From Syntrophales bacterium (lineage in GTDB: Bacteria; Desulfobacterota; Syntrophia; Syntrophales; UBA2210), in the NCBI GenBank assembly GCA_963666365.2, contig CAXXNF010000002.1, positions 1,984,001 to 2,048,000 on the forward strand: a stretch of 64,000 nt of DNA, in the 5' to 3' direction. Below are positions 1,707 through 32,581 of the stretch, one piece after another (position 1 is the first letter of the stretch; every line of letters starts with the position of its first letter). The notes under the pieces were generated by a model. That model was given only the letters and a program-made list of their open reading frames with translations. It had not been told where the DNA came from and made no database searches. Made by a program: the position numbers and the translations under genes.

Positions 1707-1707
1707 G

Positions 1708-2502: not shown

Positions 2503-2505
2503 CGT

Positions 2506-7822: not shown

Positions 7823-7853
7823 CTCGGCATAAGTCTTCGGGAGGAAACACAGT

Positions 7854-9527: not shown

Positions 9528-9544
9528 TGATAAAGGAGGAGTCC

Positions 9545-10213: not shown

Positions 10214-10220
10214 ATCGAAT

Positions 10221-11054: not shown

Positions 11055-11066
11055 GAGCAAACCATC

Positions 11067-11294: not shown

Positions 11295-12378
11295 CGAATA
11301 CCGCAATCCCGCCATAGCACAGGCCCTTTTAACCCGAATTCGACACCGGGCAAAGGACTTGAAGCGCGAAATAACGCTCATGGAGGTGTGTGGGAGTCAC
11401 ACCACTGCTATCGGCCGTTTCGGAATCAGAAAACTCCTTCCCGATTCCATTCGCCTCGTCTCGGGACCGGGTTGTCCTGTCTGCGTCACCTCCATCGGCG
11501 ATGTCGACAGGGTTCTTTTTCTTGCTATCCAAACGGGGGTCATCTTTACCACCTTCGGCGATATGCTGCGCGTACCGGGCACGGAAGGGAAAAACCTTCA
11601 GACGCTGCGGGCATCGGGCGCCGATGTACGCATCCTGTCGTCGGCAACAGAGGCACTCGATATTGCAAAGGAAAATACTCAGCGAAGAATCATCTTCATG
11701 GGAATCGGGTTTGAAACAACAGCCCCTACCATAGCCCTCGTTCTTCAGATATGGAAAAAGCAACGAATCGATAATCTTTCTCTTTATTCTGTTCACAAGA
11801 TCATACCGCCTGCCATGAAGATCCTCATATCCGACAGGTCGCTTAACATTGACGGTTTTCTCTGCCCCGGACATGTGAGTACCGTGATAGGCGCAGAAGC
11901 CTATCGTTTCATCGCTGATGCTGGCAGGGCGGCCGTAATTACGGGATTTGAACCGATAGATATCCTGGAGGGCATCCTCATGATTCTTGAACAGCTTGCC
12001 GGCGGGTCCCCAGATGTTGAAATCCAATACAGTCGAGGCATGCACAAAGGGGGTAATTCAAGAGCTCTTGATGCTATGGAGACTGTGTTCGCCACGGGAC
12101 CGGCACTCTGGCGCGGGCTGGGCGAAATTCCCGAAAGCGGGCTTTTTCTCAAAGACTCTTACCGGATCTTCGATGCGCTCAACCATTTTGAGATTCCCTT
12201 CCTCAATACCGAAGAGCCGAAGGGGTGCCGTTGCGGAGATATACTCCGGGGTCTCACCGCCCCCGATCAGTGCCCCCTTTTCAGCCGCCTCTGTAATCCC
12301 GCGCACCCCATAGGGCCATGCATGGTCTCATCGGAAGGAACCTGCGCTGCCTATTATAAATATCGCGATGGGAGGTAA
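11281..12378 (+). CDS. hypD: Hydrogenase maturation protein HypD
   Basis: MEVCGSHT, GPGCPVC, PGHVS, GPCMVSSEGTCAAYY. Confidence 0.96.
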   Translation: MNYIDEYRNPAIAQALLTRIRHRAKDLKREITLMEVCGSHTTAIGRFGIRKLLPDSIRLVSGPGCPVCVTSIGDVDRVLFLAIQTGVIFTTFGDMLRVPGTEGKNLQTLRASGADVRILSSATEALDIAKENTQRRIIFMGIGFETTAPTIALVLQIWKKQRIDNLSLYSVHKIIPPAMKILISDRSLNIDGFLCPGHVSTVIGAEAYRFIADAGRAAVITGFEPIDILEGILMILEQLAGGSPDVEIQYSRGMHKGGNSRALDAMETVFATGPALWRGLGEIPESGLFLKDSYRIFDALNHFEIPFLNTEEPKGCRCGDILRGLTAPDQCPLFSRLCNPAHPIGPCMVSSEGTCAAYYKYRDGR

Positions 12379-12386
12379 CATAAGCG

Positions 12387-13049
12387 ATGAAAGTACCCGT
12401 TGTCAAAAACATTCTCGACGCAAACGACCGGATCGCCGGAGAAAACAGGTCGCTCTTCGATTCCCACGGTCTTTATGTAATCAACCTTATGAGTTCGCCC
12501 GGGGCGGGAAAGACCACCCTGGTGGAAAAGACAATTCAGGCTCTTTGGGCACGATACCGAATCGGCGTAATTGAAGGAGATATTCAGGACACCTATGACG
12601 CCGACCGGATCGCCGCCCTCGATATTCCTGTGGTGCAGATCAACACGGGGGGCGGCTGCCATATCGACGGGAACATGGTACGAGAAGCGCTCCCCGGCCT
12701 GAATCTTGCCGAATTGGATCTCCTCATCGTAGAAAACGTGGGAAATCTGGTCTGTCCCGCCGAGTTTCGGATCGGAGAGGATGTGAAAGTCATGCTGCTC
12801 AGTACGCCTGAGGGCGCCGACAAACCGGCCAAATACCCTCTCATGTTCCACGAATCGGCAGCGCTGATCATCAACAAGACCGACCTGATCCCCTATGTAG
12901 ACTTCGATATGACAACGGCAAAGAAGGCGTCCCTGGCAATCAATCCGAAGCTTGCCATATTTGAAGTGTCCTGCAAAACCGGGGAGGGCCTCGAGAAATG
13001 GTGTGCCTGGCTCGATGCACGAATCCGAAGTGCCAGAGACGCACAATAA
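12387..13049 (+). CDS. hypB: Nickel insertion GTPase HypB
   Basis: SSPGAGKT, ENVGNLVCPA, NKTDL. Confidence 0.96.
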   Translation: MKVPVVKNILDANDRIAGENRSLFDSHGLYVINLMSSPGAGKTTLVEKTIQALWARYRIGVIEGDIQDTYDADRIAALDIPVVQINTGGGCHIDGNMVREALPGLNLAELDLLIVENVGNLVCPAEFRIGEDVKVMLLSTPEGADKPAKYPLMFHESAALIINKTDLIPYVDFDMTTAKKASLAINPKLAIFEVSCKTGEGLEKWCAWLDARIRSARDAQ

Positions 13050-15317
13050 AATTATAAGAACCCGTTTTCTTTTTACGGGAACCGTCCAGGGGGTGGGGTT
13101 TCGTCCGTTCGTATACAGGATCGCCACAGCTCATAGACTTGCTGGTTTCGTAAGAAACAGTTCCGAAGGCGTGATTGTTGAGGTTGAAGGACCCGAAGGA
13201 AGAATGGAGGACTTCCTTTGCGACATGGACAAAACACCCCCCCCTGGCTCGAATTGACGGTGTAAAAAAGCCGGATCGCACTTCGCGGCGACGACTCCTT
13301 TCACATAATAGAAAGCGCCGCCACCGGCGTCCCGTCGGTCCATATCACTGCCGATACCGCCACCTGTGATGCCTGTCTCAAAGAACTCTTCGACCCCACC
13401 GACCGACGCTATCGCTATCCCTTCATCAATTGCACCAACTGCGGTCCCCGGCTTACCATCATCAGGGGCATCCCCTATGACCGTGAAAATACTTCCATGG
13501 CCTCTTTTCCTCTATGCCCTCGCTGCCGCAAAGAATATACTGATCCGGCAGACAGGCGTTTTCACGCAGAGCCGAACGCCTGTCCCGACTGCGGCCCCCA
13601 TCTGGAATTTCTCGACGCCCAGGGGACTCCTTGCGTAACTGCCGATCCAGTGGAAGAGGCGTTCAAGATCCTCTCTTCCGGCCGCATCCTTGCACTGAAA
13701 GGGCTGGGGGGGGTTCATCTTGCCTGCGACGCGATCAATGATGAGGCAGTAAGGCGTCTCAGAACACGTAAATTTCGAGAAGAAAAACCTCTGGCCGTGA
13801 TGGTGCAAGACAGTGCGGCCGCTGCGTCTTTCGTCGTTCTGAGCGAGCCGGAACGTATGCGTCTCCCCTCTCCGGAACGCCCCATCGTTATCGCAAGACA
13901 AAAGAGCGGCGTCCCACTTGCGCCATCAGTGGCCCCGGGAATGAACACCCTGGGAATTATGCTCCCCTATACGCCGCTCCATCATCTATTACTGGCCGGT
14001 CCTTTCAAGGCCCTCGTCATGACAAGCGGCAATCGAACCGACGAACCGATCGCGATCGAAAACGGCGAGGCCGTCACAAGGCTTGCGGGAATCGCCGATC
14101 GATTCCTTCTGCACAACCGGGACATCCTTGTCCGCTGCGACGACTCAATCGTAATGGAGATGGCAGGAAGGACAGTTATGGTAAGTCGTTCCCGAGGATT
14201 CGCGCCCCGTGCCGTCGAATTGCGGAAAGACTTCCCTCCCGTACTCGCACTGGGAGGCCATATGAAGACCACGATCTGTGTGACAAAAGACCGCTATGCC
14301 TTTTTCAGTCCCCATATAGGGGATATGGACACGCCCCAGGCGCGCGACTTCCATCGCGAAAGCATCGCACTGATGGAAAAGATTACCCGCTGCACACCCC
14401 GAATTATCGCCTGCGACTGTCATCCCGGCTACTACACCTCCCGTATGGCACACGAAATGAAGGATGTAGCGGTAGTGGAAGTCCAGCACCACCATGCCCA
14501 TATTGTGAGCTGCATGGCCGAAAGAGGGCTCACCGGACAGGTCATCGGCCTCGCCATGGACGGAACCGGCTACGGTACTGACGGCCATGTATGGGGTGGC
14601 GAATTTCTCTGTGCCGACGAAAGAAACTTCACGCGACTGGGCCATTTCACACATCTCCCCCTGCCCGGCGGAGAGGCGGCGGTGCGCGAACCCTGGAGAT
14701 GCGCCGCAAGTCTGCTGAAACACGCCTTTGGTAATGTATGGTCTGCCGTTGCGAAGCAACTGAATCCGTCCCTGCCTGAAAACGCCCTTTTGATGATCGA
14801 CCGGATGATGACAGAAGCCATCCAGTGTCCCCTCACTTCAAGCCTGGGACGGCTCTTTGAGGGCATAGCCGCGCTCATCGGTCTCCGCCAGAAGGCAAGT
14901 TTCGAGGGACAGGCGCCGATGGAGCTGGAAGCACTGGCCGAAAGGGGAAATCCCCGTCCCCTCCCCTTTGCAACGGCCGTCGAGGGGGATATCACCATAA
15001 TAGATATCGCGCCGGCAATTCGCGAGCTTGTGGCAAAGCGCACTGAAGGCTGCGAACCAGCGGATCTTGCCGCATCTTTCCTACAGATGGCAGTCGAGAT
15101 ATTTCTCGCACTGTCGCGGGAAATACGGCACAAGACAGGCCTCAACCGGGTCGTTCTGAGCGGGGGCTGTTTTCAGAACCGGAATCTGGTGGAAAGGACC
15201 GTCTCGGTTCTCGAAAAGTCGGGGTTCGATGTCTACACCCACTCACTGGTACCTCCCAATGACGGGGGGCTCGCTTTGGGACAGGCCGTTGTGGCCGCTG
15301 CAAAAGCGGAACAGTAA
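13015..15317 (+). pseudogene. hypF: hypF carbamoyltransferase with two frameshifts near 13237-13269; start approximate
   Basis: GTVQGVGFRPFVY in one frame, PPLARID in a second, CDAC...YPFINCTNCGPR...QHHHAH...PPNDGG in a third; shifts map to C8 and A6 runs. Confidence 0.85.
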
Positions 15318-15342
15318 AAATAATCTCGCGCTGAGCCGCCGA

Positions 15343-15390
15343 GACGCTGAGGATAAGAGAAAAAAAGTTTTTTCTCTTATCCCCTGCGTC
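15343..15390. repeat. Long intergenic inverted repeat between hypF and hypE
   Basis: GGATAAGAGAAAAAA/TTTTTTCTCTTATCC (15 bp perfect) with outer GACGC/GCGTC. Confidence 0.7.
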
Positions 15391-15435
15391 CCTGCGGGAA
15401 ATAAAATATATAAACGCGACATGAGGTAAGAGGCA

Positions 15436-16446
15436 ATGAATCACGATACCATTCTTCTCGAACACGGGGGCGGCGGTCTTCTTTCCAACACATTGATCGC
15501 CGAAACCTTTCTTCCCCTTTTTAACAATGCCTACCTGGAGCAGCTCAGAGACGGCGCCGTTTTCGATATAGGTACCAAGCGTGTCTGCTTTTCCACTGAT
15601 TCCTACGTGATCAACCCGATCTTTTTCCCGGGAGGGGATATCGGATCACTGGCCGTTCACGGCACCGTCAATGATATCGCCATGTGCGGCGGGAAACCGC
15701 TCTTTTTGAGTGCCGGCTTCATTCTTGAGGAAGGGTTTCCCATGACGGATCTCAAGAAAATTACGCAGTCCATGGCAGAGGCTGCGCATAAGGCGGGAGT
15801 CATGATCGTCACGGGCGACACCAAAGTGGTGACCCGGGGCGCCGCCGACGGCCTTTTCATCAACACATCGGGATTAGGGATCGTGGCATATCCGCAGACA
15901 CTTTCGCCTCAGGCAATAGAACCGAACGACGTGATCATCATAAACGGTACCATCGGTGATCACGGTGGTGCCGTGCTCAGCAGCCGGGAGAGGCTTCAAT
16001 TCAGCGCGCCGCTCTATTCCGATTCAGCCCCTCTGAACAGGCTTGTGGAAGAGATTCTCAGAGCAAGTCCCCGTATTAACTGCATGCGCGACGCCACACG
16101 AGGTGGACTCGGCGCTATTCTCGCCGAACTTGCAGGTCAATCCAACCGCGAACTGCGTATCGACGAGGCAGCGATACCCGTGAAAGATGAGATCAGGGGT
16201 CTTTGCGAAATACTCTGGTTCGACCCGCTCTATCTCGCCAATGAGGGGAAGATGGTAATTTTTGCAGCACCGGAAGAGGACGCCCGCATTTTACAGATCA
16301 TGAAACAACACACATACGGAAAAGATGCCGCCGTTATCGGTCACGTCGGGAAAAAAAACAGGGGACGGGTCATCATGAAAACGCTCATAGGCGGCTTCAG
16401 GGAAATCGATCTCCCCACAGGGGAACTGGCGCCCAGAATCTGTTAA
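15436..16446 (+). CDS. hypE: Hydrogenase maturation protein HypE
   Basis: HGGGG, FFPGGDIGSLAVHGTVND, MRDATRGG, C-terminal PRIC. Confidence 0.96.
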   Translation: MNHDTILLEHGGGGLLSNTLIAETFLPLFNNAYLEQLRDGAVFDIGTKRVCFSTDSYVINPIFFPGGDIGSLAVHGTVNDIAMCGGKPLFLSAGFILEEGFPMTDLKKITQSMAEAAHKAGVMIVTGDTKVVTRGAADGLFINTSGLGIVAYPQTLSPQAIEPNDVIIINGTIGDHGGAVLSSRERLQFSAPLYSDSAPLNRLVEEILRASPRINCMRDATRGGLGAILAELAGQSNRELRIDEAAIPVKDEIRGLCEILWFDPLYLANEGKMVIFAAPEEDARILQIMKQHTYGKDAAVIGHVGKKNRGRVIMKTLIGGFREIDLPTGELAPRIC

Positions 16447-19494: not shown

Positions 19495-22482
19495 TCAGAA
19501 ATGGAATGCATCCCTGAAGATGAGGTATGCCAGCACTAACCCAAAAAGCGTAGCGGCGATTCCCATAATGCCGGCAAGCAGGCGAGTCCTCACGCTGGGC
19601 GCCCTGCGTATCAGCGTTTCCAGGCGATTTTCCGCAATGATCCGCTCGTACTCTTCCGGTCGTTCCTCCTTGAGCGCTGCCACACTATACCGTCCGGTAA
19701 AAATATTCGATTCCATGGGGAATTTGTTCGGCACCAGATGATTATGAAAGTAGTGGACCGTGAAAATGAAGACGGCCGCCAGGAACGCTTCCTCTGAGTG
19801 GGCAACCGTGGCCACGTTGATCATCCACCCTGGCAGGATGTAGGAGAACAACTCCGGGAACCAGAGGATAAGACCCGACATACCGATCACGAACATTCCC
19901 CAGAAAACGGCGAAGAAGTCGAACTTCTCCCAGTAGGTCCAGCGCTCGAAGCGAGGCATCTCCCCCCTGTTGAAGAACCATCGGAACATCCCCTTGAGAT
20001 CAAGCCAGTCCTTCAGGTTAAAGAAAAGTGATTCCGGCCCGAAGAGACGTCCCAGCCATCCGCGGACCCTTCCGTTCGGGAAGAGGAACTTCACGCTTCT
20101 CCAGCATGTGTATATAAAGAGCACCCACAACACAGTGGCGGCTGCGCGGTGCCAGAATCCGGCCATCTCAACCCCGCCCAGCATATTGATGAAGAATTTC
20201 GCCGTTACCGTTTCATGGTATTTAAGCGGGAAGCCAGTAATGACAAGCATAAAAAATGAGATCATCAGGAGAAAATGCATGATGCGATCTCGCCAGGAAA
20301 AACGCTGCACATAGGTAGTCATATCCCCTGAACAGGGCTCTTCCCATTCCATCAAGTGCACACCTCTGCCCGTCCATTTCTTCCAATAGGCCTTCCTCCA
20401 CCAGAGGATAGTATGCACCCAGAAAAAGGCAAACACAAAAATAAGAAGTCCGATCATGAATATATTGGTCCAGAACAATGCAGGATTGTGTTCGGGATCG
20501 CTGTAATCCGGATGAGCTTCATACTTGACGAACCGTGCATGAAATCCACTGTGGCATTGTGCGCAGTCCTTCATAAGATCGCTTTCGTGCACAGTTGATC
20601 GAGGATCCGATGAAGGCAGGATATTGTGGCCGTTATGGCAATCGGCACACCCGGCTACCCGCTCGGCAGTTCCCACGTCAAAAACCTTGCCATGAAATGT
20701 TTCGTGATACAAATCGGCCGCCGAAATTGACATGTTGTTGCGCTTTACCAGTTCCTCATCGCCGTGACAGCTGATGCACGCGACTGTGTATGCCTCCTTT
20801 TCCTGCGCGCGGCCTTCCTTGGTTCCCCTGTCATAAAACGGCGTGTCATGAAGCCCGTGACAATCGGCACAGGAAGCCGCATCCTCATTCCCCTTGAGAA
20901 CGGCGTTACCGTGTCCGTTGCGCACATAGCGGTCCTTTTCGTGACAAGCGGTACAGCGGTTGATTACCGCAGTCTTTGTTCCCCCGTCTTCCTTTTTCCG
21001 AACGTGCGCATCGCTATGACAATCAAGACAGGTTTTCCCCGCCTTGAGGGCGTGCATGTCGTTTTCATATTGCAAGGCGATATCCTTATGGCAGCTCGCA
21101 CAGGCGGTAAGACCCGGCTTCTTCTCCTTTTTCATGTGAGCCGCCACGTCATCTATCCCGGTGTGGCAGGTTGTGCAGGCAAGGATGCCGTGGACCGACT
21201 GTGCGAACCTATCGACGTATTGCGCATCGTTGTGACAGGTAGCGCATTGTATGAGGGCTTCCGCGGTTTTCTTTTCCGCCGGTACCGTCTCCCCGCCCTT
21301 CATCTCTTTTGCCATCGCCGGCTTTGCCGCCGCCTCCGTCTTTGCCGGCTTTACCATCGGCGACGGGATGACGAAATCGAACTCGTGGCACTGGTGACAA
21401 AAGTTCTCCGACGGCTTGTGGGCGTGATGGCAGAGATCGCAGTCCAGCTCGGGGCCGTAATGGGAGTTATGCGGATTGGCCTCTTTGACGTCCTTTGTCG
21501 CCTCAACGAGATCTTCGGGCTTATGACAGGTAAGGCAGTGACTCGTGCCCACGAACTTCGGGGGATCGGTCTCGCCGTGACACCCGGCGCAGGAGACCCC
21601 GCCTAAGAGGTGGCTGTGGCTCAGGGGGAGCACGCTGGTCAGCTTCGGATCGTCTTCCTTATGGCAGGCCATGCACTGGGCGAGATCCATCCCCTTCGTG
21701 TCGGGGTGCGTCCCGGGAATCATGGCCTCCTTGTGACAGGCGGCACAGTCTCCACCCCTCGCTGCTGCTGAGGGCGCCGTCTCGGGAGCGGGTGCGATTG
21801 CGGCAATCGTCTTTTCCTCAGAGGCCTTTTCCTGACCGACCGTTACAGCCGCCGGCGCAGTCTTCTTCGATTCTTCACCCTTCGAGGGCTCTTTCGCCGC
21901 AGGCGCCTCTTTCTTCGCGGGCGCTACCATCGGCGACGGGATGACGAAATCGAACTCGTGGCACTGGTGACAAAAGTTCTCCGACGGCTTGTGGGCGTGA
22001 TGGCAGAGATCGCAGTCCAGCTCGGGGCCGTAATGGGAGTTATGCGGATTGGCCTCTTTGACGTCCTTTGTCGCCTCAACGAGATCTTCGGGCTTATGAC
22101 AGGTAAGGCAGTGACTCGTGCCCACGAACTTCGGGGGATCGGTCTCGCCGTGACACCCGGCGCAGGAGACCCCGCCTAAGAGGTGGCTGTGGCTCAGGGG
22201 GAGCACGCTGGTCAGCTTCGGATCGTCTTCCTTATGGCAGGCCATGCACTGGCCGAGATCCATTCCCTTCGTGTCGGGATGCGCCTCGGGCACCATGGTA
22301 TTCCCCTCATGGCACAGTGCACATTCCCCGCCTTTTGCAGTCGGCACTGCTTCGGGTTCCGCCGAGAGTGCAGTCTTTGAATCGGCGCTGCAGAAAATGA
22401 AAAAAAGACACGCAACGAGGAAAGGGATGATGCTTCTGCGGCTCCGGATTGGAAACTCACGCATATGTGGGTTTGGCTTCAT
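19495..22482 (-). CDS. 21-heme cytochrome c fused to a cytochrome b membrane domain (two hexaheme modules plus CbcL-like 9-heme/cyt b part)
   Basis: Signal-like N-terminus, 21 CxxCH counted (6+6+9), Pro/Ala/Lys/Glu linkers, C-terminal TM helices with RIMH, FWHR, WEKFDFFAVFWG, AHSEEA. Confidence 0.9.
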   Translation of the reverse strand: MKPNPHMREFPIRSRRSIIPFLVACLFFIFCSADSKTALSAEPEAVPTAKGGECALCHEGNTMVPEAHPDTKGMDLGQCMACHKEDDPKLTSVLPLSHSHLLGGVSCAGCHGETDPPKFVGTSHCLTCHKPEDLVEATKDVKEANPHNSHYGPELDCDLCHHAHKPSENFCHQCHEFDFVIPSPMVAPAKKEAPAAKEPSKGEESKKTAPAAVTVGQEKASEEKTIAAIAPAPETAPSAAARGGDCAACHKEAMIPGTHPDTKGMDLAQCMACHKEDDPKLTSVLPLSHSHLLGGVSCAGCHGETDPPKFVGTSHCLTCHKPEDLVEATKDVKEANPHNSHYGPELDCDLCHHAHKPSENFCHQCHEFDFVIPSPMVKPAKTEAAAKPAMAKEMKGGETVPAEKKTAEALIQCATCHNDAQYVDRFAQSVHGILACTTCHTGIDDVAAHMKKEKKPGLTACASCHKDIALQYENDMHALKAGKTCLDCHSDAHVRKKEDGGTKTAVINRCTACHEKDRYVRNGHGNAVLKGNEDAASCADCHGLHDTPFYDRGTKEGRAQEKEAYTVACISCHGDEELVKRNNMSISAADLYHETFHGKVFDVGTAERVAGCADCHNGHNILPSSDPRSTVHESDLMKDCAQCHSGFHARFVKYEAHPDYSDPEHNPALFWTNIFMIGLLIFVFAFFWVHTILWWRKAYWKKWTGRGVHLMEWEEPCSGDMTTYVQRFSWRDRIMHFLLMISFFMLVITGFPLKYHETVTAKFFINMLGGVEMAGFWHRAAATVLWVLFIYTCWRSVKFLFPNGRVRGWLGRLFGPESLFFNLKDWLDLKGMFRWFFNRGEMPRFERWTYWEKFDFFAVFWGMFVIGMSGLILWFPELFSYILPGWMINVATVAHSEEAFLAAVFIFTVHYFHNHLVPNKFPMESNIFTGRYSVAALKEERPEEYERIIAENRLETLIRRAPSVRTRLLAGIMGIAATLFGLVLAYLIFRDAFHF
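21352..22252. repeat. 328-bp direct repeat (21352-21679 and 21925-22252), 573-bp period
   Basis: Copies read identical by eye; similarity continues about 30 bp further with mismatches. Confidence 0.92.
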
Positions 22483-22626
22483 ACTTCCCCCTGATCGGAT
22501 TCGGCAGTGCAACTCGCGATACTACCCATATTAAAAACCTACCGGCTGCCGCCGCGTGGTGGCATATGTCCCTCTCCACCCCGCGACGGCTTCGGTTAAC
22601 CACACAATCAGTTGCTCTTCCCGCCG

Positions 22627-24159
22627 TTATACTTTCGCGGCGGCACTCTGGCCGGCAATGCGTCCGAAGACGATGCAATCGAGCACGGCGCAGCTTCCCA
22701 GACGCACGGCGCCGTGGACACCGCCGGTAATCTCACCGGCCGCGTAAAGTCCCGGGATGGGTTTACGATCAAGCCCGATAACCTGCGCCTTCGTATTTAT
22801 CTGAATGCCGCCCATGGTATGATGCACCTTGGGCCAGGCGCGACATCCATAGAACGGAGGCGTTACCATCGGTTTCTGGTCGGTCTGCAGATATCGGCCG
22901 AATTCCTCATCCTTGCCCTGTTTCACATACTTGTTCCACTTGTTTATCGTTTCCTTGACTGTGTCCACCGGAATCTTATATTCGGCGGCCAAGGCCTCGA
23001 TGGTGTCGAACTTCTTCGCCACGCCCTTTGCCAGGATCTTGTCGAGGATGGGAACCCGTTTGACCCCTTCACTGTCTGCAATGGTAATGGCCGGATGTCC
23101 CGTCCTGATAATGGCATCGGCACGGATCTTTCGGTCTGCCAATTCATTGATGAAGCGCTTCCCCGTTTGCGGATCCACCATGACACCATAGACAAAACCG
23201 GCTATGGCGTTGAAGACATAGCCGATGCCCATGCCTTTCTCGTCGGGACTGGTCCAGGGACCGAGCTGTATCCAGGAAATCTGCACGGGCGTCGCGCCTG
23301 ACCTGAGCGCATCCATGAGCACCTCTCCCGTTGCCCCGGGCTGATTGGTGGAATCCACATCGGCCGTCAGCTTCGGATCCTGGATCGTTCTGAAATAGAG
23401 ATCCCTGCCGAAACCGCCAGAGGCGAGCACGAGCCCCTTGTTGGCCTTCAGATATTTTACCGTGCCGGTGCTCTCATCGGGGAAGCGGTAGCCTTCTCTG
23501 ATCTTCAGGCCGGCAACCTTCCCGTCCTTATCCTGGATGATGGACATGACATAGGCCTGCATCCTCACCTCGACACCAAGGCCCTTTACCTTCTCCAGCT
23601 CCTTCATTACGATGGCCGATCCGCTGCTGTTGTAGGTCGAATAGCTGCGGGGGACCGAATGGCCGCCCAGATGGGTTACCCGGTCCTTGTACTTGACGCC
23701 CAGCATCTCCGTCCATTCCGCTGCTTCCCGCGACTTTTCCGCAATCATCCTGGCCAGATCCACATGATTGAGGTAGAGCCCGGCCTTCAACATATCCTTC
23801 AGCAGCAGTTCCGGCGAATCCTTGATCCCTTCCGCCTCCTGCTTCGGTGATCCCGCCACGGCAAAGACGCCGCCGTTGATGATGGAGTTCCCTCCGGGAA
23901 CACGCATTTTCTCAAGAACCACGGTCGAAGCGCCCGCCTGCTTCGCCTCGATGGCCGCAGCCAGACCGGCGAACCCGCTGCCGACCACCACCACATCGAA
24001 CTCCTCGTCCCATTTGGCGGGCATGTCGGCGCCATAGGCCTTAAGAGGACCGGCAAGCAGGGAACCGGCTGCCACACCGGCCAGCGCGGCGCCACCTGTG
24101 GTCTTCATGAACCCTCTTCGCGTCAAACCCTCAGCTACATTGTTTTTTTCATCTTTCAT
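22627..24159 (-). CDS. Tat-exported flavocytochrome c flavin subunit (fumarate reductase superfamily), copy 2
   Basis: TRRGFMK, VVGSGFAG, GGNSIINGG, IQLGPW, VHHTMGG, GAVRLGSCA; no CxxCH; RBS AAGGAG before ATG 24159. Confidence 0.92.
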   Translation of the reverse strand: MKDEKNNVAEGLTRRGFMKTTGGAALAGVAAGSLLAGPLKAYGADMPAKWDEEFDVVVVGSGFAGLAAAIEAKQAGASTVVLEKMRVPGGNSIINGGVFAVAGSPKQEAEGIKDSPELLLKDMLKAGLYLNHVDLARMIAEKSREAAEWTEMLGVKYKDRVTHLGGHSVPRSYSTYNSSGSAIVMKELEKVKGLGVEVRMQAYVMSIIQDKDGKVAGLKIREGYRFPDESTGTVKYLKANKGLVLASGGFGRDLYFRTIQDPKLTADVDSTNQPGATGEVLMDALRSGATPVQISWIQLGPWTSPDEKGMGIGYVFNAIAGFVYGVMVDPQTGKRFINELADRKIRADAIIRTGHPAITIADSEGVKRVPILDKILAKGVAKKFDTIEALAAEYKIPVDTVKETINKWNKYVKQGKDEEFGRYLQTDQKPMVTPPFYGCRAWPKVHHTMGGIQINTKAQVIGLDRKPIPGLYAAGEITGGVHGAVRLGSCAVLDCIVFGRIAGQSAAAKV

Positions 24160-24198
24160 ACCCAATCTCCTTTGTTTCTATAGTGAACACTTGTATTG

Positions 24199-24226
24199 AT
24201 TGTAAAACAATACCAATGCAAGTCAA
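24199..24226 (-). promoter_or_regulatory. Putative internal sigma70 promoter
   Basis: TTGACT-N16-TACAAT about 40 nt upstream of the start codon. Confidence 0.5.
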
Positions 24227-24456
24227 GGGCGCAGAGCCGAGTATTTTCCCTACTTTAGACGCTGAAAAGACTATTTTTTCACACTCCAAATACTGATAGG
24301 TCCTCTCCATGTGCAGCGATGCCCGCTCATCAGTGCATAGGCAGGGGCAATTCAGGCCCACACTATGCAGGGCCAATGCGATGTGCGGCAAAAAATAATC
24401 CTTTTCCGCCGCATTCCGCATCCTCATTTCAACCCAAGTCCTGTGGCGCGGCTTTT

Positions 24457-26007
24457 TTACAGGGCAGCCGCATTCTTGCCCGCAATACGTCCGAAGACCA
24501 GACAATCCACCACGGCACAACTGCCGAGGCGCACCGCTCCGTGAACGCCGCCGGCCACTTCGCCGGCCGCATAAAGCCCCTTGATCGGAGCACCGTCCAC
24601 ATCGATCACCTCTGCCTTGTCATTGATCTGCACACCGCCCATGGTATGGTGCACCTTCGGCCAGAGTCTGACGGCATAAAAGGGAGAAGTCGCAATCGGT
24701 TTGGCGTCGGGCTGGAGGAATCGTCCGAATTCCTTGTCCATTCCCGTCTTCAGATATGAGTTGTAGTCGTCGACGGTCTTTTTGACAGCCGCAAAGGGTA
24801 TTTCATAGGCCGCGGCCAGTGCCTCGAGGGTATCAAATTTTTTGACGACGCCACGCTCCAGGAGTTTTTTCACTGCACCGGGAGGACCTCCGCACTTTTT
24901 CGATCCCTCTTCGTCGGAGATACCGATCGCCGCATGACCGGTTCTGATGATGGCGTCGGCCCGAATTTTGCGATTTGCAAGCTCACTGATGAAGCGCTTT
25001 CCCGTTGCGGGATCCACCATGACACCGTAGCTGAAAACCGGACCCGTTGCGAAATGGGGCGCCAGCCCGAAGCCCTTTTCGTCAGGACTTGCCCAGGGAC
25101 CGAGCTGAATCCAGGAGGGCTGCACGGGATTCGCGCCAAGCCTGAAAAGCTCCTTGAGCCCTTCGGCGGTGGCGCCCGGCTGATTCGTGGAATTGACCTT
25201 GGCTATGAGCTTTGGATCCTGCGTCATTCTGTAGTGCACGTCCTGAGAAAATCCGCCCGTTGCCATCACAAGACCCTTCTTTGTGCGGATCGTCTTGACA
25301 GCGCCGCTCTTTTCATCGGGAAAGCGATACCCTTCCCGTATCTGGATACCGGCAATACGCCCATCCTTGTCTCTGAATATTCTTTCCAGATAGGCCTGCG
25401 TAACGATGGGCACACCCAGCTCCTTTAGTTTGGCCGCTTCCTTCATGACAATGCCCGAACCGCTGTAGTTCGAAGTGGGGCAGCTTCTAGCCACGGCATG
25501 ACCCCCCATATGGAGAAGCTGCGCCGCTTTTCCGAATTTGACGTCAAGATGCTCCTTGCACCAATTGTATGCGTCCCTGGATTGATAGGCCACCATTTTT
25601 GCCAGCTCGGGGTAGTTCAAGTACAGTCCGGCCTTCATCATGTCTTCCAGCATCAGCTCCGGAGAATCCTTAATCCCTCTCTCATCCTGCATATCGGATC
25701 CGGCCACGGCCATGACGCCACCGTTAATAATTGAATTGCCTCCATTCACGCGCATTTTCTCATAGACCGCAACCGACGCGCCCGCCTCCTTGGCCTCGAT
25801 TGCCGCGGCAAGCCCTGCAAAACCGCTGCCGATGACGGCCACATCGATTTCCTCGTCCCATTTCTGGGGCATCTCGGCGCTGAACGCCTTTGACGGACCG
25901 GCCAGCAATCCACCGGCGGCAACGCCGCCAAGGGCGACAGTGCCCGTTGTTTTGAGGAACCCTCTACGGGTCAAACCCTCATTTTTTGGTAATGTATCTT
26001 TCGCCAT
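24457..26007 (-). CDS. Tat-exported flavocytochrome c flavin subunit, copy 1
   Basis: TRRGFLK, IGSGFAG, IQLGPWASPDEKG, VHHTMGG, GAVRLGSCA; paralog of the neighbour. Confidence 0.92.
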   Translation of the reverse strand: MAKDTLPKNEGLTRRGFLKTTGTVALGGVAAGGLLAGPSKAFSAEMPQKWDEEIDVAVIGSGFAGLAAAIEAKEAGASVAVYEKMRVNGGNSIINGGVMAVAGSDMQDERGIKDSPELMLEDMMKAGLYLNYPELAKMVAYQSRDAYNWCKEHLDVKFGKAAQLLHMGGHAVARSCPTSNYSGSGIVMKEAAKLKELGVPIVTQAYLERIFRDKDGRIAGIQIREGYRFPDEKSGAVKTIRTKKGLVMATGGFSQDVHYRMTQDPKLIAKVNSTNQPGATAEGLKELFRLGANPVQPSWIQLGPWASPDEKGFGLAPHFATGPVFSYGVMVDPATGKRFISELANRKIRADAIIRTGHAAIGISDEEGSKKCGGPPGAVKKLLERGVVKKFDTLEALAAAYEIPFAAVKKTVDDYNSYLKTGMDKEFGRFLQPDAKPIATSPFYAVRLWPKVHHTMGGVQINDKAEVIDVDGAPIKGLYAAGEVAGGVHGAVRLGSCAVVDCLVFGRIAGKNAAAL

Positions 26008-26520: not shown

Positions 26521-27144
26521 TTAATGCCCTTCCTTATTGTCGTACCCAGTAATCATGGCGCTGAAATTTGCAACAACTGTGTGGCCGGTGGTGGCAAGGT
26601 AGATGTGCGCTATAAAAAACAAGCAGAAAATAGCTGCCATAATATAGTGGAACACCGCCACGGTCGCTAATCCACCGACAGACGCCACCAGGGGCTCGAA
26701 AAAGGAGGGATAGAGGTATATGATACCGCTGATCAACAGGAGCGGCATCATGATGAACATAAACATAAAATACGTTGCTTTCTGCAACGGATTAAACTTG
26801 TTGTCTTCCGACGGATTATAGGGATGGGGCCTGTTTTTGAAAATATCATACAGATAAAATCGCGCCTGCACGATCATGCCCGGATGAATATCTTCTTTTC
26901 TCATCACATAATGCGAAATCCTCTTTGAAATCAAATTATAAGCCAACCAGAAAACAAAATCGGCAACGAGCACCCATCCCAACCAGTTATGCAGTGAAAG
27001 CGCATTTGAAAAGCTTCCAAAAATATTAACGCTGTCCGGCCAGTGCATCTGGATACCTGTTAAAATAAGCAATAATATTAAAAGTGCATGAATCCAATGC
27101 CATATGCGCTCGGCGATCGGATGCAGATATATTTTCTCTGACAT
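26521..27144 (-). CDS. Cytochrome b membrane subunit (PhsC/FdnI-like)
   Basis: ERIWHW, LHNW, KFNPLQK, FHY, AHIYLATTG. Confidence 0.9.
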   Translation of the reverse strand: MSEKIYLHPIAERIWHWIHALLILLLILTGIQMHWPDSVNIFGSFSNALSLHNWLGWVLVADFVFWLAYNLISKRISHYVMRKEDIHPGMIVQARFYLYDIFKNRPHPYNPSEDNKFNPLQKATYFMFMFIMMPLLLISGIIYLYPSFFEPLVASVGGLATVAVFHYIMAAIFCLFFIAHIYLATTGHTVVANFSAMITGYDNKEGH

Positions 27145-27148
27145 GTTC

Positions 27149-28912
27149 TTATTTTCTCCTCTTGCCGGTAAATCTCAATGCTCCGTGCACTGCACATCCC
27201 ACAAGCGTAAGAAGCGCCAGCAAAATTACAACGACGTCGAGAGCCGGAATTCTATTGCTGCCCACCACATAATTCCCTTTTTCAATAAGCCCGGCGTTGG
27301 TAAATTTCCAATTGGCCAGCGAATAATCCGGTTTTCCTTCAGCCTCTTTCAAGAGAATCGTGTTGTATGTATGACAAAGCTGACAATCGTCAACGGGAGC
27401 TGCCATTGAAGGATCGTGACATACGAGACAATCGGTTTTTTTCAGGTGAAGCTTCGGCTGTTCCAGCCAGTTATGCCGCACGGATGGAGCGGGCTTTAAC
27501 GTAACGAACACATCTTTGTTTGCATCGATTTCCCACGATTCGGCAGCATCCTTTTCCGTCAGAAACAGTTCATCCTTTCCGTGACAGGAAAGGCACGTTT
27601 CGTTTTGTGGGGTCTTCAGTTGAATGCTATGCGGCGTTGCATATTTCCATGTTTGCACTTTGCCCACTTCAGTCAGGGCGTCCTTCACGTAAAAATCAAA
27701 GAGATCCGGACTTACGGGAATATGTCGAACCGTCACATATTGCTCAGGCCGGTCTTCGCTCATTTTCGGATTCATTCCGATTTTGAAGCCCACCTTTGAC
27801 GGCTTTGTTTTAAAATAGGGAGCACCTGATGCGTCTTTACCCACATGACAACTATAACAGTGTTTATAAGGCATCGCGTGACATACTTGACAACTCACCT
27901 TGTCTTTGTGAATCATATGGCTCGGATGTACACGCTCTTTCGCTTCACTTTCGTCTTGCGCCGCTTCATCTTCAGAACCTGCCAATTTATGACACTTTTC
28001 GCACCTTGACCCGTCTGCAACGTCATATCTGTCAAAGGTCTCATGGCTCATGCCGTTTCCGTGCATTTCATCACCGGAATGGCAATCCATACATGACATA
28101 CATTTATCAATACGGTGCACATCACCCTGCACACCCTTATTCTGGCCGTAGAATTCCTTGCCTACCCTGCTTCCGTGACAGGAGGTGCAATTTGTTTCAA
28201 CAGGAGGAGTTTTCTGAAAAATGTGGCCTTCTACGAATCCGCCTTCGACGGAATTGGGACGGCTTACGTGACATTGACCGCAACTGCTGTGACACTTCAT
28301 ACAGTGCGTTTCCATGGCGCAGTCTATTTTTTCACGTACCGATGGATCCGCATTTGCCCTTAGATAAATTTTGTTTTTAAACGGGGCAAGCGTTACATGC
28401 AGATTTGTTTTGTTTTTTTCTGCAATTTCCGGATGTCCCTCTTCATCGTCTACGAAGTGGCACTCGCCGCACTTCTGCACAGGATCGGGATAGGAAGGAT
28501 CTCTCATCAGACCTTCATGTGCCGTCTCATAATCATCGCTTTCAGGATCGCCACCATGGCACTGTTCACAGGATATCTGCCCATGGACATCATCGTCGAT
28601 GAAATCAGAGTCAACCAGCACTTTTTCGTATGGCTCCAACTGAGCCACAGCTCCGCCTCACCCTTCGCCTTCCGATTCAGCGGACTTTTTCTGCTGAGGA
28701 TTTTTCGCTGCAATCTCTTTTGTAATTCTTACCAGCTCTTTCACACTTGTATGGCATGAGACGCAGCCGCTTTCCTCGGCACTAACCATCTGCCCCGCAC
28801 CAAGAAAAACAACAACAAAGATGGCAGCAACAATAACAAAAAGTTCTGACGTGTACCGCGCACACATTATTTTGTGTGCAGAAACCCCTCTGTAAACAAT
28901 GCGTTCTTTCAT
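27149..28912 (-). CDS. Predicted selenocysteine-containing 13-heme cytochrome c, 587 aa (joins track ORFs 28658..28912 and 27149..28648)
   Basis: TGA 28658-28660 is in frame with the downstream ORF (SEGEG-U-GGAVAQLEPYEK); upstream part gives the signal-like hydrophobic segment and 1 CxxCH, downstream part 12 CxxCH and a C-terminal TM; SECIS-like hairpin follows. Confidence 0.85.
28629..28649 (-). promoter_or_regulatory. SECIS-like hairpin of the multiheme cytochrome
   Basis: UGUGGCUC-AGUUG-GAGCCAUA; loop 16 nt after UGA, G at loop position 2. Confidence 0.75.
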
Positions 28913-29167
28913 AACGCCCTAACACATATCAAAAACCGCTGTACGGGTAAAGGTTTTTTTACTCACAGTTACTTGAAAAAGACAGACCTCCCAAATTTCG
29001 GCTTCCAATCCTGGAATCTAGTGCCTGCCCATCGAAGGTTCCTGCATGAAAGCAAGGCCTATGCATAACTCCTGTATTTTGTACCCGCTGTGATTTTACT
29101 TTTTTTAAAAAACATGTTATGGATTGCAGGTAGTGAAAGAAATCTTATTTTTGGAGGTAAAGCTATT

Positions 29168-29614
29168 ATGCGTAATCAGATGGTTTTTAGGAAAGGTCTT
29201 ATCATTTCCATTGCCGTGATTTTAGTGCTCTCATTGTCCGGATATTGTCTGGCGGACAAGACCAGCAAGGATTTTGTAAATGAAGCGAAAAAAACGGTGA
29301 AAGAAATCTCCGTCGCCGATGCAAAGGCAGAAATAGATTCGGGAAAAGTGGCAATAATTCTCGACTGCAGAACGGAGAAGGAGTTTAAAAAAGGACATAT
29401 TCCTAAAGCAATGAATATTCCTCGCGGTCTTCTGGAATTCAAAATTGAAAAGAAAATACCGAAGAAAGACGCCTACATAATTTGTTACTGCGTATCAGGC
29501 GGCCGTTCCTGTCTTGCCTGCAGCACCATGAAAGAGATGGGATATTCAAACTTGAAAAGCATGGCGGGCGGATGGAAGGCATGGGTCAAAGCCGGTTATC
29601 CGATAGAGGAATAA
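29168..29614 (+). CDS. Exported single-domain rhodanese/sulfurtransferase
   Basis: Signal peptide, LDCRT..EF..GHIP.A.NIPRG.LE, active loop CVSGGR, GGWKAW; RBS GGAGG. Confidence 0.9.
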   Translation: MRNQMVFRKGLIISIAVILVLSLSGYCLADKTSKDFVNEAKKTVKEISVADAKAEIDSGKVAIILDCRTEKEFKKGHIPKAMNIPRGLLEFKIEKKIPKKDAYIICYCVSGGRSCLACSTMKEMGYSNLKSMAGGWKAWVKAGYPIEE

Positions 29615-29640
29615 CGCTAAAATCAAACGGATAAAACTGG

Positions 29641-29677
29641 AGGGGAACAATTCTGAAAGGGGTTGTTCCCTTTTTTT
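29641..29677 (+). terminator. Intrinsic terminator after rhodanese
   Basis: GGGAACAATTC...GGGTTGTTCCC followed by T7. Confidence 0.75.
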
Positions 29678-29703
29678 ATAATCGCACAGTATGCACTGTT
29701 CCG

Positions 29704-30546
29704 TTACATGTAACTGTGCAAACCCGAAAGTATGTAATTTACCCCGAGATAAGTAAAAATCACGGCAAAAAAACCGAGAATGGCAATACAGGCCATGATG
29801 GTTCCCTTCCATCCCTTTACCAGGCGGGCGTGGAGATAGGCGCCGTAAATCATCCAGGTGATGAGCGACCAGGTCTCTTTCGGATCCCACCCCCAATACC
29901 TTCCCCAGGCAGTATCGGCCCAGGCTGCACCAGTAATTATTCCCAGACTCAGTAAAACAAAACCGATTGAGGTTATTCGATAGGCCAGATCGTCCCACAT
30001 CGCGGCATCCGCGAGAAGTGCCGTAATTCTCGGTCCTCCCTTCACTCTGATCAAATAGAGTATGCTGGTGATGAACGAAAGAGCAAAACAGGCATAGGCA
30101 AGAAAGGAACTCACCACGTGACTGATGAGCCAATTACTTCTTAATGCGGGTATAAGAGGCTGAATTTCCGTGCTCACACTGCCGGAAAGCGACGCATAGG
30201 CCGGCAGCAAAAAGGCCAGGAAGGATGCCAGTATTCCGATACTTTCATTACCGTAACGTCTCCACATTATCAGCAATACGAGCATTACTGACCAGGAAAA
30301 AAAGACGAGCGATTCGTAGAGATTGGAAAGAGGTGCATGCCCGATTTCCAGTTGATACGAAATTGCCCAGCGCAGAATAATCGCAAACGTTTCTATGGAA
30401 AATCCGCTTGCCACCAGGATCAGTGCCAATACACGGATGACCTTTTTTTTAAAAACAAAGGCAGTAAAGAAGAAAAGAGTTCCAAAAAAATAAAGAAATG
30501 TTGCAATACTTACAAAAAATGTATCGTTCATACCAGTATCAATCAT
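29704..30546 (-). CDS. System II cytochrome c synthase subunit (CcsA/ResC family)
   Basis: GHAPLSNLYESL, WLISHV, WWD domain WADTAWGRYWGWDPKETW, C-terminal LHSY. Confidence 0.95.
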   Translation of the reverse strand: MIDTGMNDTFFVSIATFLYFFGTLFFFTAFVFKKKVIRVLALILVASGFSIETFAIILRWAISYQLEIGHAPLSNLYESLVFFSWSVMLVLLIMWRRYGNESIGILASFLAFLLPAYASLSGSVSTEIQPLIPALRSNWLISHVVSSFLAYACFALSFITSILYLIRVKGGPRITALLADAAMWDDLAYRITSIGFVLLSLGIITGAAWADTAWGRYWGWDPKETWSLITWMIYGAYLHARLVKGWKGTIMACIAILGFFAVIFTYLGVNYILSGLHSYM

Positions 30547-31868
30547 TGTTGTAGTTTATTAAGATGCTTTGCAAGAATTTTCTCGAAGTTGCCGTCGCGT
30601 TTTCTGTCTGTTTTCGCTGCAACTTCAACATATGATCCTTCGCCGGACGGCGTAATCCGTATCGACAGACACCGGTGCGACCCAAAGAGCACAATTACAA
30701 AACCGATGAGAATCAGGGCAAACCCACTCCATACCACGGGCATTCCCGGATTTTTGCTTATCTGTATGCCCGTGTAGTAGCGAGCGGTAAAATCTTCCAG
30801 TGCAAAGATATACTCTCCCCGTTCTACTTCCTGAGACCGGTGCCTCTGAAATGGTATCCAGAAAATATCGTGACTCATCCCCGGCACAAGCATCACACCC
30901 AATACTGCCGCCCCCTGTCCTTGAAAATCCGGCACAAACCGTGCAACGGCAAAGGAAGAGTCGCTTCCCGGCAATGGCACTTTTCGCATCCGATGGAGTG
31001 TAAGCACCGATCTGGTGCCGCTTTTCTTTTCCGTAACGGCGACTTTGAAATCGGAAGCATCGGCCATTCCATATGAAGCCTGACATAGTTTGTATCCCCG
31101 AAAGACAATGGGATGATTTACTCGTATCGATTCCTCCGCCACAGACGCACCCTCATCAATGATCGTTACATCGGATCGGTATTCTTTCGGCATACCACTG
31201 TCGTAAAATTCAACGGAAAAACGATTGCATCGTACCGAAAAGGGCAGCGTCATTTCTTTGGTTCCCGGAGAAACAAGAACCTTGCTCGAGGTTTCTCCCT
31301 CGACAATCGTCATTTGGCCTTCAAAACCGCCGACTGCACCTATGAGACCGCCGGCCAGAATTATCAGAATGCTCACATGAACGAACAGGATACCAAGCCG
31401 CGCATAGGCACCTTTTTCCGCATAAAGGTATCGCACGTCACGCTCACCTTTCACATTCGGCTTCCCGACAAGCGCTTTTACCAACATTCGCAGATTGCCT
31501 TCTATGCGTTCCCCTCTATCGTGCATTTCGAACTTATGTTGTATCGGCCACCCGCAAAAGGCCGCATCGCTCTTATCACCCCGCTTCCGAAACAGCGGGG
31601 CGCAAATTCCCGGAAGCGTTTTCGCCGTACAGGCAATGAGGTTAACTGCCAAAAGCGCCAGGAGAACGGTGAACCACCAGGAATGGTACATGTCTGAAAT
31701 ATCGAAAAACTCAATAAGAGAAACCGTACCCGGTCCATAGACATTCTCATAGTGGTCCTTTGGGAGCCCCTGTGCTACCAAAGTGCCGAACACGGAGGTT
31801 GCGGCCAGCGCAAAAAAAAGGAATATGGTAAGTTTTGCCGAAGCAAGTCCCTTGATAACTTTTTTCAT
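30543..31868 (-). CDS. System II cytochrome c biogenesis protein (ResB/Ccs1 family)
   Basis: GTLVAQ, DMYHSWWF, VHVS, IRVNHP, YTGIQISKNPG. Confidence 0.93.
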   Translation of the reverse strand: MKKVIKGLASAKLTIFLFFALAATSVFGTLVAQGLPKDHYENVYGPGTVSLIEFFDISDMYHSWWFTVLLALLAVNLIACTAKTLPGICAPLFRKRGDKSDAAFCGWPIQHKFEMHDRGERIEGNLRMLVKALVGKPNVKGERDVRYLYAEKGAYARLGILFVHVSILIILAGGLIGAVGGFEGQMTIVEGETSSKVLVSPGTKEMTLPFSVRCNRFSVEFYDSGMPKEYRSDVTIIDEGASVAEESIRVNHPIVFRGYKLCQASYGMADASDFKVAVTEKKSGTRSVLTLHRMRKVPLPGSDSSFAVARFVPDFQGQGAAVLGVMLVPGMSHDIFWIPFQRHRSQEVERGEYIFALEDFTARYYTGIQISKNPGMPVVWSGFALILIGFVIVLFGSHRCLSIRITPSGEGSYVEVAAKTDRKRDGNFEKILAKHLNKLQQ

Positions 31869-31907
31869 TATACACCGTTGTTGATCATAATCGGACAGGT
31901 GGATTCT

Positions 31908-32200
31908 TTACCCCTCCCAGAGCGTCCGGCTTCGAGGGATTTCAGATTCCCTGGTACTTGCAGAATCCTTATAGGCCCGGAATAGCAAATAGCTGCCGAG
32001 GGAAAAGAGCAATCCGTCCCTTACAAGATACCAGATCATTGAACTGGCGACACCACCTTTTTCAGGAGAGCTGAAACAGCCACAGCAAATGACTCGGGAT
32101 CAACTATTTTGTGGATGCTCGCATAGATAAAAAGCGCTCCCATCAAAAAACTGATAACACGACAATATATTTTTTCCCTGTCACAACTCTGCTGCTTCAT
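31908..32200 (-). pseudogene. MauE/DoxX family membrane protein with internal deletion
   Basis: N-terminal GALFIYASIHKIVDPESFA abuts, in a different frame, CGCF...LVRDGLLF; middle helices absent. Confidence 0.75.
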
Positions 32201-32581
32201 GAACCGCAACATCTTTTCAGAGAGGAAGCGACATCGATCTGACCGCATTGACTACAAAACCACATACAAAGGCAATTAATAGAATCAGACCCGCCTGGAA
32301 TATGCACACTCATACCTGTCTGTCAATAGCCTTTTTTTCTCTTTTTGTTCTGTCATATGCTAAAAGATATCTTTCATTTTCTCCCCCGAAAAAAAATGAG
32401 GAACTCCCATAATATCCCGGGGGATAACAGTCTTTCGCTACATCACAGACCTTATTGCTCTTACCGATTGCTTTTATAGGAAAACCTTTGCCTATTGCAA
32501 GAATTTTGTCAACAGCCTTTCTATGAGTGTTTCCTTGACCCTTTAGAGGCAATTAGGTAAAAGAAACTGAAAGGTAAAAAG

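Follow-up and report, generated by a model that had tools for sequence, protein, structure and literature searches.

A selenocysteine multiheme cytochrome paired with a rhodanese in a Syntrophales bacterium: a candidate molybdenum-free sulfur reductase unrelated in sequence to MccSep

What does a bacterium do with a multiheme cytochrome gene that looks broken by an in-frame UGA codon and lies between a cytochrome b gene and a divergent rhodanese gene? We addressed this question in a Syntrophales bacterium (GCA_963666365.2, contig CAXXNF010000002.1) by analysing a 64,000-nucleotide (nt) stretch of its genome, hereafter the window, in which the local cluster spans 26521..32200; all coordinates are window positions. 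We find that the cytochrome gene is recoded with selenocysteine (Sec), that its family is paired with a rhodanese and, in its long form, with a cytochrome b, and that it is a distant homolog of the Geobacter cytochrome ExtM. By analogy with characterised systems, the most likely function of the encoded system, to which we give a probability of about 55%, would be that of a quinol-fed, Sec-dependent reductase of polysulfide or of rhodanese-bound sulfane sulfur. The features that carry this argument are as follows.

27149..28912, minus strand: Sec multiheme cytochrome c, 587 residues with 13 CXXCH motifs, from the read-through translation and relatives
28658..28660, minus strand: in-frame UGA read as a predicted Sec, residue 85, motif GEGUGG
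28629..28649, minus strand: hairpin resembling a selenocysteine insertion sequence (SECIS), with a 7-8 bp stem and a 5-nt loop, (A/C)GUUG
26521..27144, minus strand: PhsC-like di-heme-type cytochrome b (PF01292), probable quinol-oxidising membrane partner
29090..29614, plus strand: exported single-domain Sud-like rhodanese (PF00581), loop CVSGGR

The original prediction, made from the DNA letters, had called the cytochrome a selenoprotein, and its reading frame bears this out: the protein with 13 CXXCH motifs is intact only when the UGA is read as Sec, and the UGA is conserved. Two open reading frames (ORFs), 28658-28912(-) (84 codons) and 27149-28648(-) (499 codons), share one frame with a single TGA between them, the likely true start being the ATG at 28867. 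The signal peptide and the first heme motif are encoded upstream of the TGA; the 499-codon ORF starts without an export signal and would therefore be unable, alone, to be exported or to receive heme. In the read-through protein, hydropathy places a hydrophobic N-terminal signal at residues 25-43 and a C-terminal membrane helix at residues 549-567, and a motif count of the window cytochrome returned CXXCH only, with no CXXCK, CX3CH or CX4CH.

A scan of one genome per species across 185,579 species genomes identified relatives in 231, from which 80 loci were retrieved. The aligned codon is TGA in all 76 loci with a complete gene (76/76); among the remaining loci, two that are cut by a contig end also read TGA, a third truncated in this way has an in-frame stop, and in one more the codon is masked by N. 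Eight of eight distant relatives at 30-37% identity, found in a sample of the phylum, carry a TGA in the same loop, in motifs that include GEGU-AGAPP and VAGU-GVSAP. Downstream of the UGA, the hairpin starts after 9 nt and its apical loop after 16 nt, and the stem columns (13-19/25-31) are paired in 88.4% of cells over 69 distinct sequences. Two stem pairs change on both sides (AU in 35 and CG in 28 sequences; GC in 47 and UA in 22), a degree of covariation matched by 0 of 500 shuffles; where these pairs switch, Ala and Glu codons flanking the loop trade places (VAPLEPY versus VEPLAPH), which leaves the helix intact. In the window the hairpin region folds at -25.4 kcal/mol (z -2.38). The bacterial SECIS model, as quoted in the available text of a 2026 selenoproteome review (PMC13188914), calls for a G within the first two nucleotides of a small apical loop that lies 16-37 nt from the UGA; the hairpin fits it, with G at loop position 2 and a spacing of 16 nt. 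The genome also encodes the Sec machinery, with SelB (361.5 bits), tRNA-Sec (76.3), SelA (608) and SelD (382.8) all above their cut-offs. As a side observation, the SelD gene (G000:C1:483557-484486) has an in-frame TGA of its own, so SelD is probably a selenoprotein itself.

On these sequence grounds, we conclude that the UGA at 28658-28660 is a selenocysteine codon. That it is instead a real stop, making the locus two genes or a pseudogene, agrees with public gene calls, which split the locus, and with the database holding the 499-residue piece only, but is scarcely credible: the UGA is conserved, the hairpin covaries, the genome has the Sec machinery, and the downstream ORF has no signal peptide. 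Nor is the locus a chance arrangement, because dozens of species share this UGA, the hairpin and the neighbouring rhodanese.

The rhodanese was described at the outset as exported, divergent from the cytochrome and bearing the loop CVSGGR, and all of this was confirmed: it scores 80 bits to PF00581 and has a hydrophobic N-terminus, export in the window being judged from hydropathy only, and its likely start is the ATG at 29168. Gene-neighbourhood analysis supports the pairing throughout the family, with a rhodanese homolog in 70 of the 80 loci. It lies directly downstream on the same strand in 60 loci (median gap 82.5 nt), upstream and divergent in 8, as in the window, and downstream and convergent in 2; of the ten loci in which it was not seen, eight end close to the gene. 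C79 and R84 of the six-residue CX4R active-site loop are invariant in 44 sequences, and rhodanese relatives carry signal peptides, some with a lipobox. A profile of this rhodanese family matches Wolinella Sud (1qxn) at E 1.6e-16.

A PhsC-like cytochrome b had been placed 4 bp after the Sec cytochrome, and both ORF position and domain content agree: the gene starts 4 nt after the cytochrome stop codon, and its product belongs to the broader PF01292 family (97.2 bits) and scores 162.5 bits, short of the 204-bit cut-off, with NF011582, the model for the cytochrome b of thiosulfate reductase. This pairing holds for only part of the family. Long forms of the cytochrome, which have a C-terminal di-heme segment and anchor, are followed by the cytochrome b after 7-19 nt in 13 of 13 loci, and in two database proteins of about 960 residues (P0030 and P0032) the core is fused to further hemes and a PF01292 domain. 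Outside the long and fused forms the linkage fails: among short soluble forms, a cytochrome b homolog occurs within the fetched flanks of only two, about 2 kb off, on the opposite strand and at about 40% identity. A further database entry, P0123, is a 620-residue NapC/NirT-type multiheme protein that ends ...SAESEGEG, exactly before the Sec site. The 959-residue cytochrome and cytochrome b fusion P0032 begins just after the Sec site, and both entries list a longest contig of 672437. Were the two adjacent, they would make up a single protein of about 1580 residues, with two quinol-dehydrogenase modules attached to the Sec cytochrome.

Such architectures, in which a cytochrome b meets a multiheme cytochrome c in separate or fused form, resemble quinol dehydrogenases, and the count of conserved histidines would allow bis-His ligation of every heme. 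Both points suit a CbcL-like conduit that carries electrons from quinol to the periplasm and has no substrate chemistry of its own, the Sec being a heme ligand or redox tuner. We consider such a conduit very unlikely, as a wire would hardly account for a Sec that stays invariant down to 30% identity or for an obligate rhodanese neighbour, and most family members, being of the short form, have no membrane partner at all.

Which known systems, then, does this family resemble? The closest functional parallel is MccSep of Geobacter sulfurreducens (ExtKL, GSU2937-2936; PDB 9wt8), a polysulfide reductase of the Sec multiheme type whose gene neighbours that of a rhodanese (Mihara et al. 2026, PMC13510729). 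According to the available text of that paper, it uses its Sec together with a heme-bound Cys to reduce polysulfide, reduces selenite less efficiently and has no activity on thiosulfate or tetrathionate. Like MccSep, the window protein would be a periplasmic multiheme cytochrome with one Sec encoded by a UGA ahead of a downstream hairpin, and its gene cluster likewise includes a rhodanese and a membrane cytochrome b module. The two differ in heme number (13 here versus 5 in MccSep), in the position of Sec (an N-terminal GEGUGG loop here versus DGUP in a C-terminal immunoglobulin-like domain in MccSep) and in membrane partner (a PhsC-type cytochrome b here versus a Rieske/b6-type complex). MccSep also has a His/Cys heme, whereas the present family has no conserved free (non-motif) Cys.

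Nor is there detectable homology between them. Against a profile built from four MccSep genes of ext clusters, hhalign gave a probability of 7%, and a profile search of the PDB reached 9wt8 at E 0.048 (16 bits); we therefore rejected identity with MccSep/ExtKL (NF040886). One of the MccSep genes used has Sec at 325 and an N-terminal stretch one residue off the mature peptide as printed in the available text of PMC13510729. MccSep, as a proven polysulfide reductase, is thus by analogy a functional model for the window system and not a relative of it.

Homology leads instead to ExtM (GSU2935, NF040943), a cytochrome with 12 hemes whose gene adjoins that of MccSep. The Sec cytochrome family is without a curated model, and Pfam gives generic cytochrome c3/c7 domains only, but hhalign against eight ExtM sequences gave a probability of 99.6% (E 3.7e-24) over 307 columns at 28% identity, making the family a distant ExtM homolog. 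It is not ExtM itself: the equivalog NF040943 was rejected at 23.1 and 24.9 bits against an 800-bit cut-off, and its matches, found in 67 of 68 family members, are weak (best E 3.5e-15). ExtM shares with the family a multiheme periplasmic character, a similar size and a rhodanese in the cluster; unlike the family, it has large insertions, no Sec loop and an invariant PGCQ cysteine. The ExtM G-C of this motif falls in a two-column gap of the Sec cytochrome family, whose Sec lies instead on the N-terminal loop. In four other genomes, ExtM-like 11-heme cytochromes have VPGUQD in place of the PGCQ motif, the U being encoded by an in-frame TGA.

L107:763-2610, minus strand: ExtM-like candidate Sec cytochrome with in-frame TGA
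L108:582-2402, plus strand: ExtM-like candidate Sec cytochrome with in-frame TGA
L109:610-2721, plus strand: ExtM-like candidate Sec cytochrome with in-frame TGA
L110:624-2369, minus strand: ExtM-like candidate Sec cytochrome with in-frame TGA

These proteins look like a further group of cytochrome selenoproteins, and the resulting PGCQ/PGUQ pair of Cys and Sec forms marks these cytochromes as enzymes rather than wires.

A structural comparison pointed to a third system. We compared AlphaFold models of the whole protein (pLDDT 72.8) and of its core, residues 40-480 (pLDDT 78.5, pTM 0.77), against 48,161 representative chains. Both models matched the octaheme tetrathionate reductase (OTR) of Shewanella oneidensis (1sp3) first, the whole protein with Z 7.5 and a root-mean-square deviation (rmsd) of 5.3 over 239 residues (next match Z 4.6) and the core with Z 7.2 and an rmsd of 5.4 over 249 residues, nearly the whole chain (next match Z 2.6). 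OTR, the only structural relative listed, is therefore a candidate for a shared fold, with 8 hemes versus 11-13 here and no Sec in the 1sp3 entry. It is a multiheme enzyme that reduces S-S bonds, and we know of no rhodanese or cytochrome b partner for it. Sequence searches returned heme-motif noise only (phmmer of the cytochrome against PDB sequences), and membership in the OTR family was rejected, as the model TIGR04315 matched 1 of 68 members, at E 0.0016, and not the window protein.

This predicted fold raises the question of whether the enzyme works as OTR does, as a tetrathionate or thiosulfate reductase in which Sec cleaves an S-S or a sulfane-sulfonate bond and the rhodanese handles thiosulfate. 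Rhodaneses accept thiosulfate as a donor, and the cytochrome b is nearest to PhsC of the PhsABC thiosulfate reductase, both of which fit. We nonetheless regard such a reductase as rather unlikely: TIGR04315 matches are nearly absent from the family, a Z of about 7 speaks for a shared fold and not a shared substrate, and MccSep, the one characterised Sec cytochrome, is inactive on both compounds in the available text of PMC13510729.

The homology to ExtM brings in selenium as a second alternative, with the system reducing selenite or tellurite, or otherwise handling selenium that the rhodanese would carry as perselenide. ExtM, the nearest curated family, takes its name from a selenite/tellurite reduction operon (PMC5877670, as far as its available text goes), and selenite is also reduced by MccSep (PMC13510729, within the same limit). 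Selenite is the poorer MccSep substrate, however, and the operon owes its name to an extI mutant rather than to ExtM. The family, moreover, is widespread in Desulfobacterota of sediments and syntrophic communities (44 of 401 sampled genomes of the phylum), where sulfur species far exceed selenium, so a dedicated selenium system seems unlikely.

A sulfur-reducing role would instead follow the logic of Wolinella succinogenes, where Sud, a small periplasmic rhodanese, feeds sulfane sulfur to Psr, a quinol-linked molybdenum polysulfide reductase. The window rhodanese is homologous to Sud, and the same logic is proposed here. Psr and PhsABC each combine a molybdopterin catalytic subunit with an iron-sulfur subunit, and both subunits would be replaced here by the Sec multiheme cytochrome. 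The observation that the cluster has no molybdopterin catalytic subunit holds over a wider range, as there is no molybdopterin ORF between 19.5 and 34 kb of the window and the nearest, 2506-4974, belongs to a formate-dehydrogenase-like set.

We therefore favour a polysulfide or sulfane-sulfur reductase, and picture the cluster as a membrane-attached respiratory reductase that would work without molybdenum. Its catalytic subunit would be the periplasmic 13-heme cytochrome, with the invariant Sec carried by the glycine-rich loop that separates heme 1 from heme 2 and its own C-terminal helix as membrane tether. Electrons from menaquinol would enter through the PhsC-like cytochrome b, which is probably translated right after the cytochrome. 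The Sud-like rhodanese would load itself with sulfane sulfur, drawn from polysulfide or elemental sulfur and bound as a cysteine persulfide, and pass it to the selenolate, which would attack the persulfide; the heme chain would then reduce the Se-S bond and sulfide would be released, with selenite or tetrathionate as possible side substrates. We infer the substrate, the direction of electron flow, the hand-over of sulfur by the rhodanese and the placing of Sec at the catalytic heme from two precedents, MccSep (PMC13510729, in its available text) and the Psr/Sud pair of Wolinella. The original idea of a molybdenum-independent, quinol-linked sulfur or selenium redox system thus fits, because of the ExtM homology, the predicted tetrathionate-reductase-like fold and the MccSep precedent; two of its parts, a dedicated cytochrome c synthesis (ccs) system and a MauE remnant, fell away, as described below.

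No sequence feature dictates which way electrons run, and thiosulfate oxidation is carried out by His/Cys-heme enzymes, among them TsdA and SoxAX (as cited in the available text of PMC13510729). The cluster might accordingly run in reverse, oxidising sulfide, persulfide or thiosulfate at Sec and passing electrons through the hemes to cytochrome b and quinone. We give this low odds. The hosts are anaerobes with low-potential multiheme networks, and a host hydrogenase and formate dehydrogenase, each with a cytochrome b, can reduce the quinone pool, which suits an enzyme on the acceptor side. Neither DsrA nor MccSep was found in the host genome, which is 94% complete; taken together with the hydrogenase and formate dehydrogenase, this suggests that the enzyme could be the organism's route to a sulfur acceptor.

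Several observations weigh against a Sec-dependent polysulfide reductase of this kind. Not every member keeps the Sec: the database protein P0021 reads W at the site, and P0122, the lone protein spanning the site in a search for Cys forms with the N-terminal region, reads GGRGGH, with neither Sec nor Cys. These two may be decayed or re-purposed forms. There are 11 conserved non-motif histidines for 11 core hemes, which leaves no heme obviously open or Sec-ligated. The rhodanese is absent from two loci with ample flanks (L012 and L074), and in the window itself it is divergent, not co-transcribed, with the loop CVSGGR where relatives mostly have CKxGGR. As to the supporting comparisons, the available text of PMC5877670 and PMC13510729 reports no tested function for ExtM, the match to OTR is middling (Z ~7, under the tool's firm-match level) and so a lead rather than proof, and a Foldseek search of the PDB returned nothing at E <= 0.001.

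The remaining genes of the cluster had been read as part of the same system. They are the following.

29704..30546, minus strand: CcsA, System II cytochrome c synthase subunit (TIGR03144, 249.5 bits), housekeeping
30543..31868, minus strand: ResB/CcsB, its System II partner (PF05140, 299.7 bits)
32036..32248, minus strand: short ORF of 70 residues, weakly similar to the first MauE/DoxX helix (23.7 bits; cut-off 27 bits)

ResB and CcsA are indeed adjacent to the cytochrome, as the original prediction stated, but the proposal that they are dedicated to it did not survive. A dedicated heme lyase has a precedent in CcsA1, which serves MccA. We rejected this explanation here, since there is no extra ccs copy beside the housekeeping one and no unusual heme motif in the client. 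The window holds the single ResB locus of the genome, CcmE was not found in the genome, and the only other CcsA-like gene sits inside a hemA-hemC-hemD-hemB operon. With a sole ResB locus, no CcmE and a client with standard CXXCH motifs, the window ccsBA pair is the organism's general cytochrome c maturation system. The second CcsA-like gene (L105:6694-7506; G000:C2, ~1.6 Mb), in an operon with hemA, hemC, hemD/cobA, hemB and a radical S-adenosylmethionine gene, seems to encode a HemX-type protein and not a cytochrome synthase. The ccsBA pair adjoins the cytochrome in about six close relatives, which may reflect synteny or co-expression with a major client. In another genus of the same taxonomic order (L115, G116:C20:30500-40500), a distant Sec paralog (30% identity, motif GEGU-AGAPP) also lies beside a divergent resB-ccsA pair. 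The supposed MauE/DoxX remnant is likewise weak: the ORF covers 36 of 128 profile positions, the first 36, and has no in-frame continuation. It probably represents a decayed gene that does not belong to the system.

Beyond the cluster, the window holds further redox genes. The formate-dehydrogenase-like set at 1038-4974 (minus strand) comprises molybdopterin and 4Fe-4S subunits together with a cytochrome b; its molybdopterin ORF starts only at profile position 99, and the head may precede another Sec UGA. At 6704-16446 (plus strand) are a nickel-iron hydrogenase (small and large subunits, cytochrome b and maturation protease) and hypD, hypF and hypE-like genes. Hydrogenase together with formate dehydrogenase makes the window a respiratory island. 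Nearer the cytochrome, on the minus strand, two paralogous flavocytochrome-c-type flavin adenine dinucleotide proteins (24457-26007 and 22627-24165), with N-termini that by eye resemble twin-arginine signals, are followed by a 1005-residue multiheme cytochrome (19495-22512). GC content is about 0.57 across 19495-26007 versus about 0.45 in the Sec cytochrome cluster. We considered and dropped a functional link to the two flavocytochrome-c-like genes, given this rise in GC, a 513-nt gap and their absence within 8 kb in relatives; neither they nor the 1005-residue cytochrome show linkage to the Sec cytochrome in relatives. A sigma-54 regulator is found near the cytochrome gene in 46 of the 80 loci, and none was seen in the window.

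What, finally, does this family add? A Sec multiheme chalcogen reductase encoded with a rhodanese has been a known kind since 2026; what is new here is a family not homologous to MccSep. Until August 2026 no sulfur-respiration enzyme was known for Geobacter-type bacteria, and then MccSep, a Sec multiheme cytochrome, was described; the present family would be a second solution of that kind, unrelated in sequence, and with its 231 species genomes is more widespread than might have been supposed. The locus adds a membrane-anchored long form with a cytochrome b, the homology to ExtM, a predicted OTR-like fold and the rejection of dedicated ccs genes. Within the cytochrome entries of the selenoproteome review (PMC13188914), of which the available text yielded only ExtKL, a GSU2204-family protein and an OTR-family octaheme entry, the family is absent; the supplements of PMC13510729 or a groundwater survey of metagenome-assembled genomes, which the review cites, may list it. 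Cultured carriers are two Desulfosarcina strains, D. alkanivorans PL12 and D. widdelii PP31 (loci L046 and L053).

The link to ExtM provides the first functional lead for a conserved Geobacter cytochrome without a known role. Taken jointly, and tentatively, ExtM-like and OTR-like cytochromes could form a superfamily of chalcogen-dependent reductases in which a Cys or Sec is placed by the catalytic heme in at least two ways, on the PG(C/U)Q strand in ExtM and its Sec relatives and on the N-terminal glycine-rich loop here. The Sec loop might then reach the same pocket, which we infer to be shared, and replace the lost cysteine. Sec might even serve as the distal ligand of the catalytic heme; to our knowledge, though no literature search was aimed at this point, such His/Sec ligation has no parallel in any described cytochrome. 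It is equally tentative that the family, acting with its obligate Sud-like rhodanese, supplies the main molybdenum-free respiratory enzyme for elemental sulfur or polysulfide in those Desulfobacterota and syntrophs that have neither Psr nor MccSep.

Several headless members are named thiosulfate/3-mercaptopyruvate sulfurtransferase by one source, despite having cytochrome domains only, a name perhaps carried over from the neighbouring or a fused rhodanese. More generally, because gene callers cut at the UGA, databases hold only headless pieces of the family, and reconstructions of sediments and syntrophic consortia therefore miss both a probable sulfur-reducing step and the selenium requirement that comes with it.

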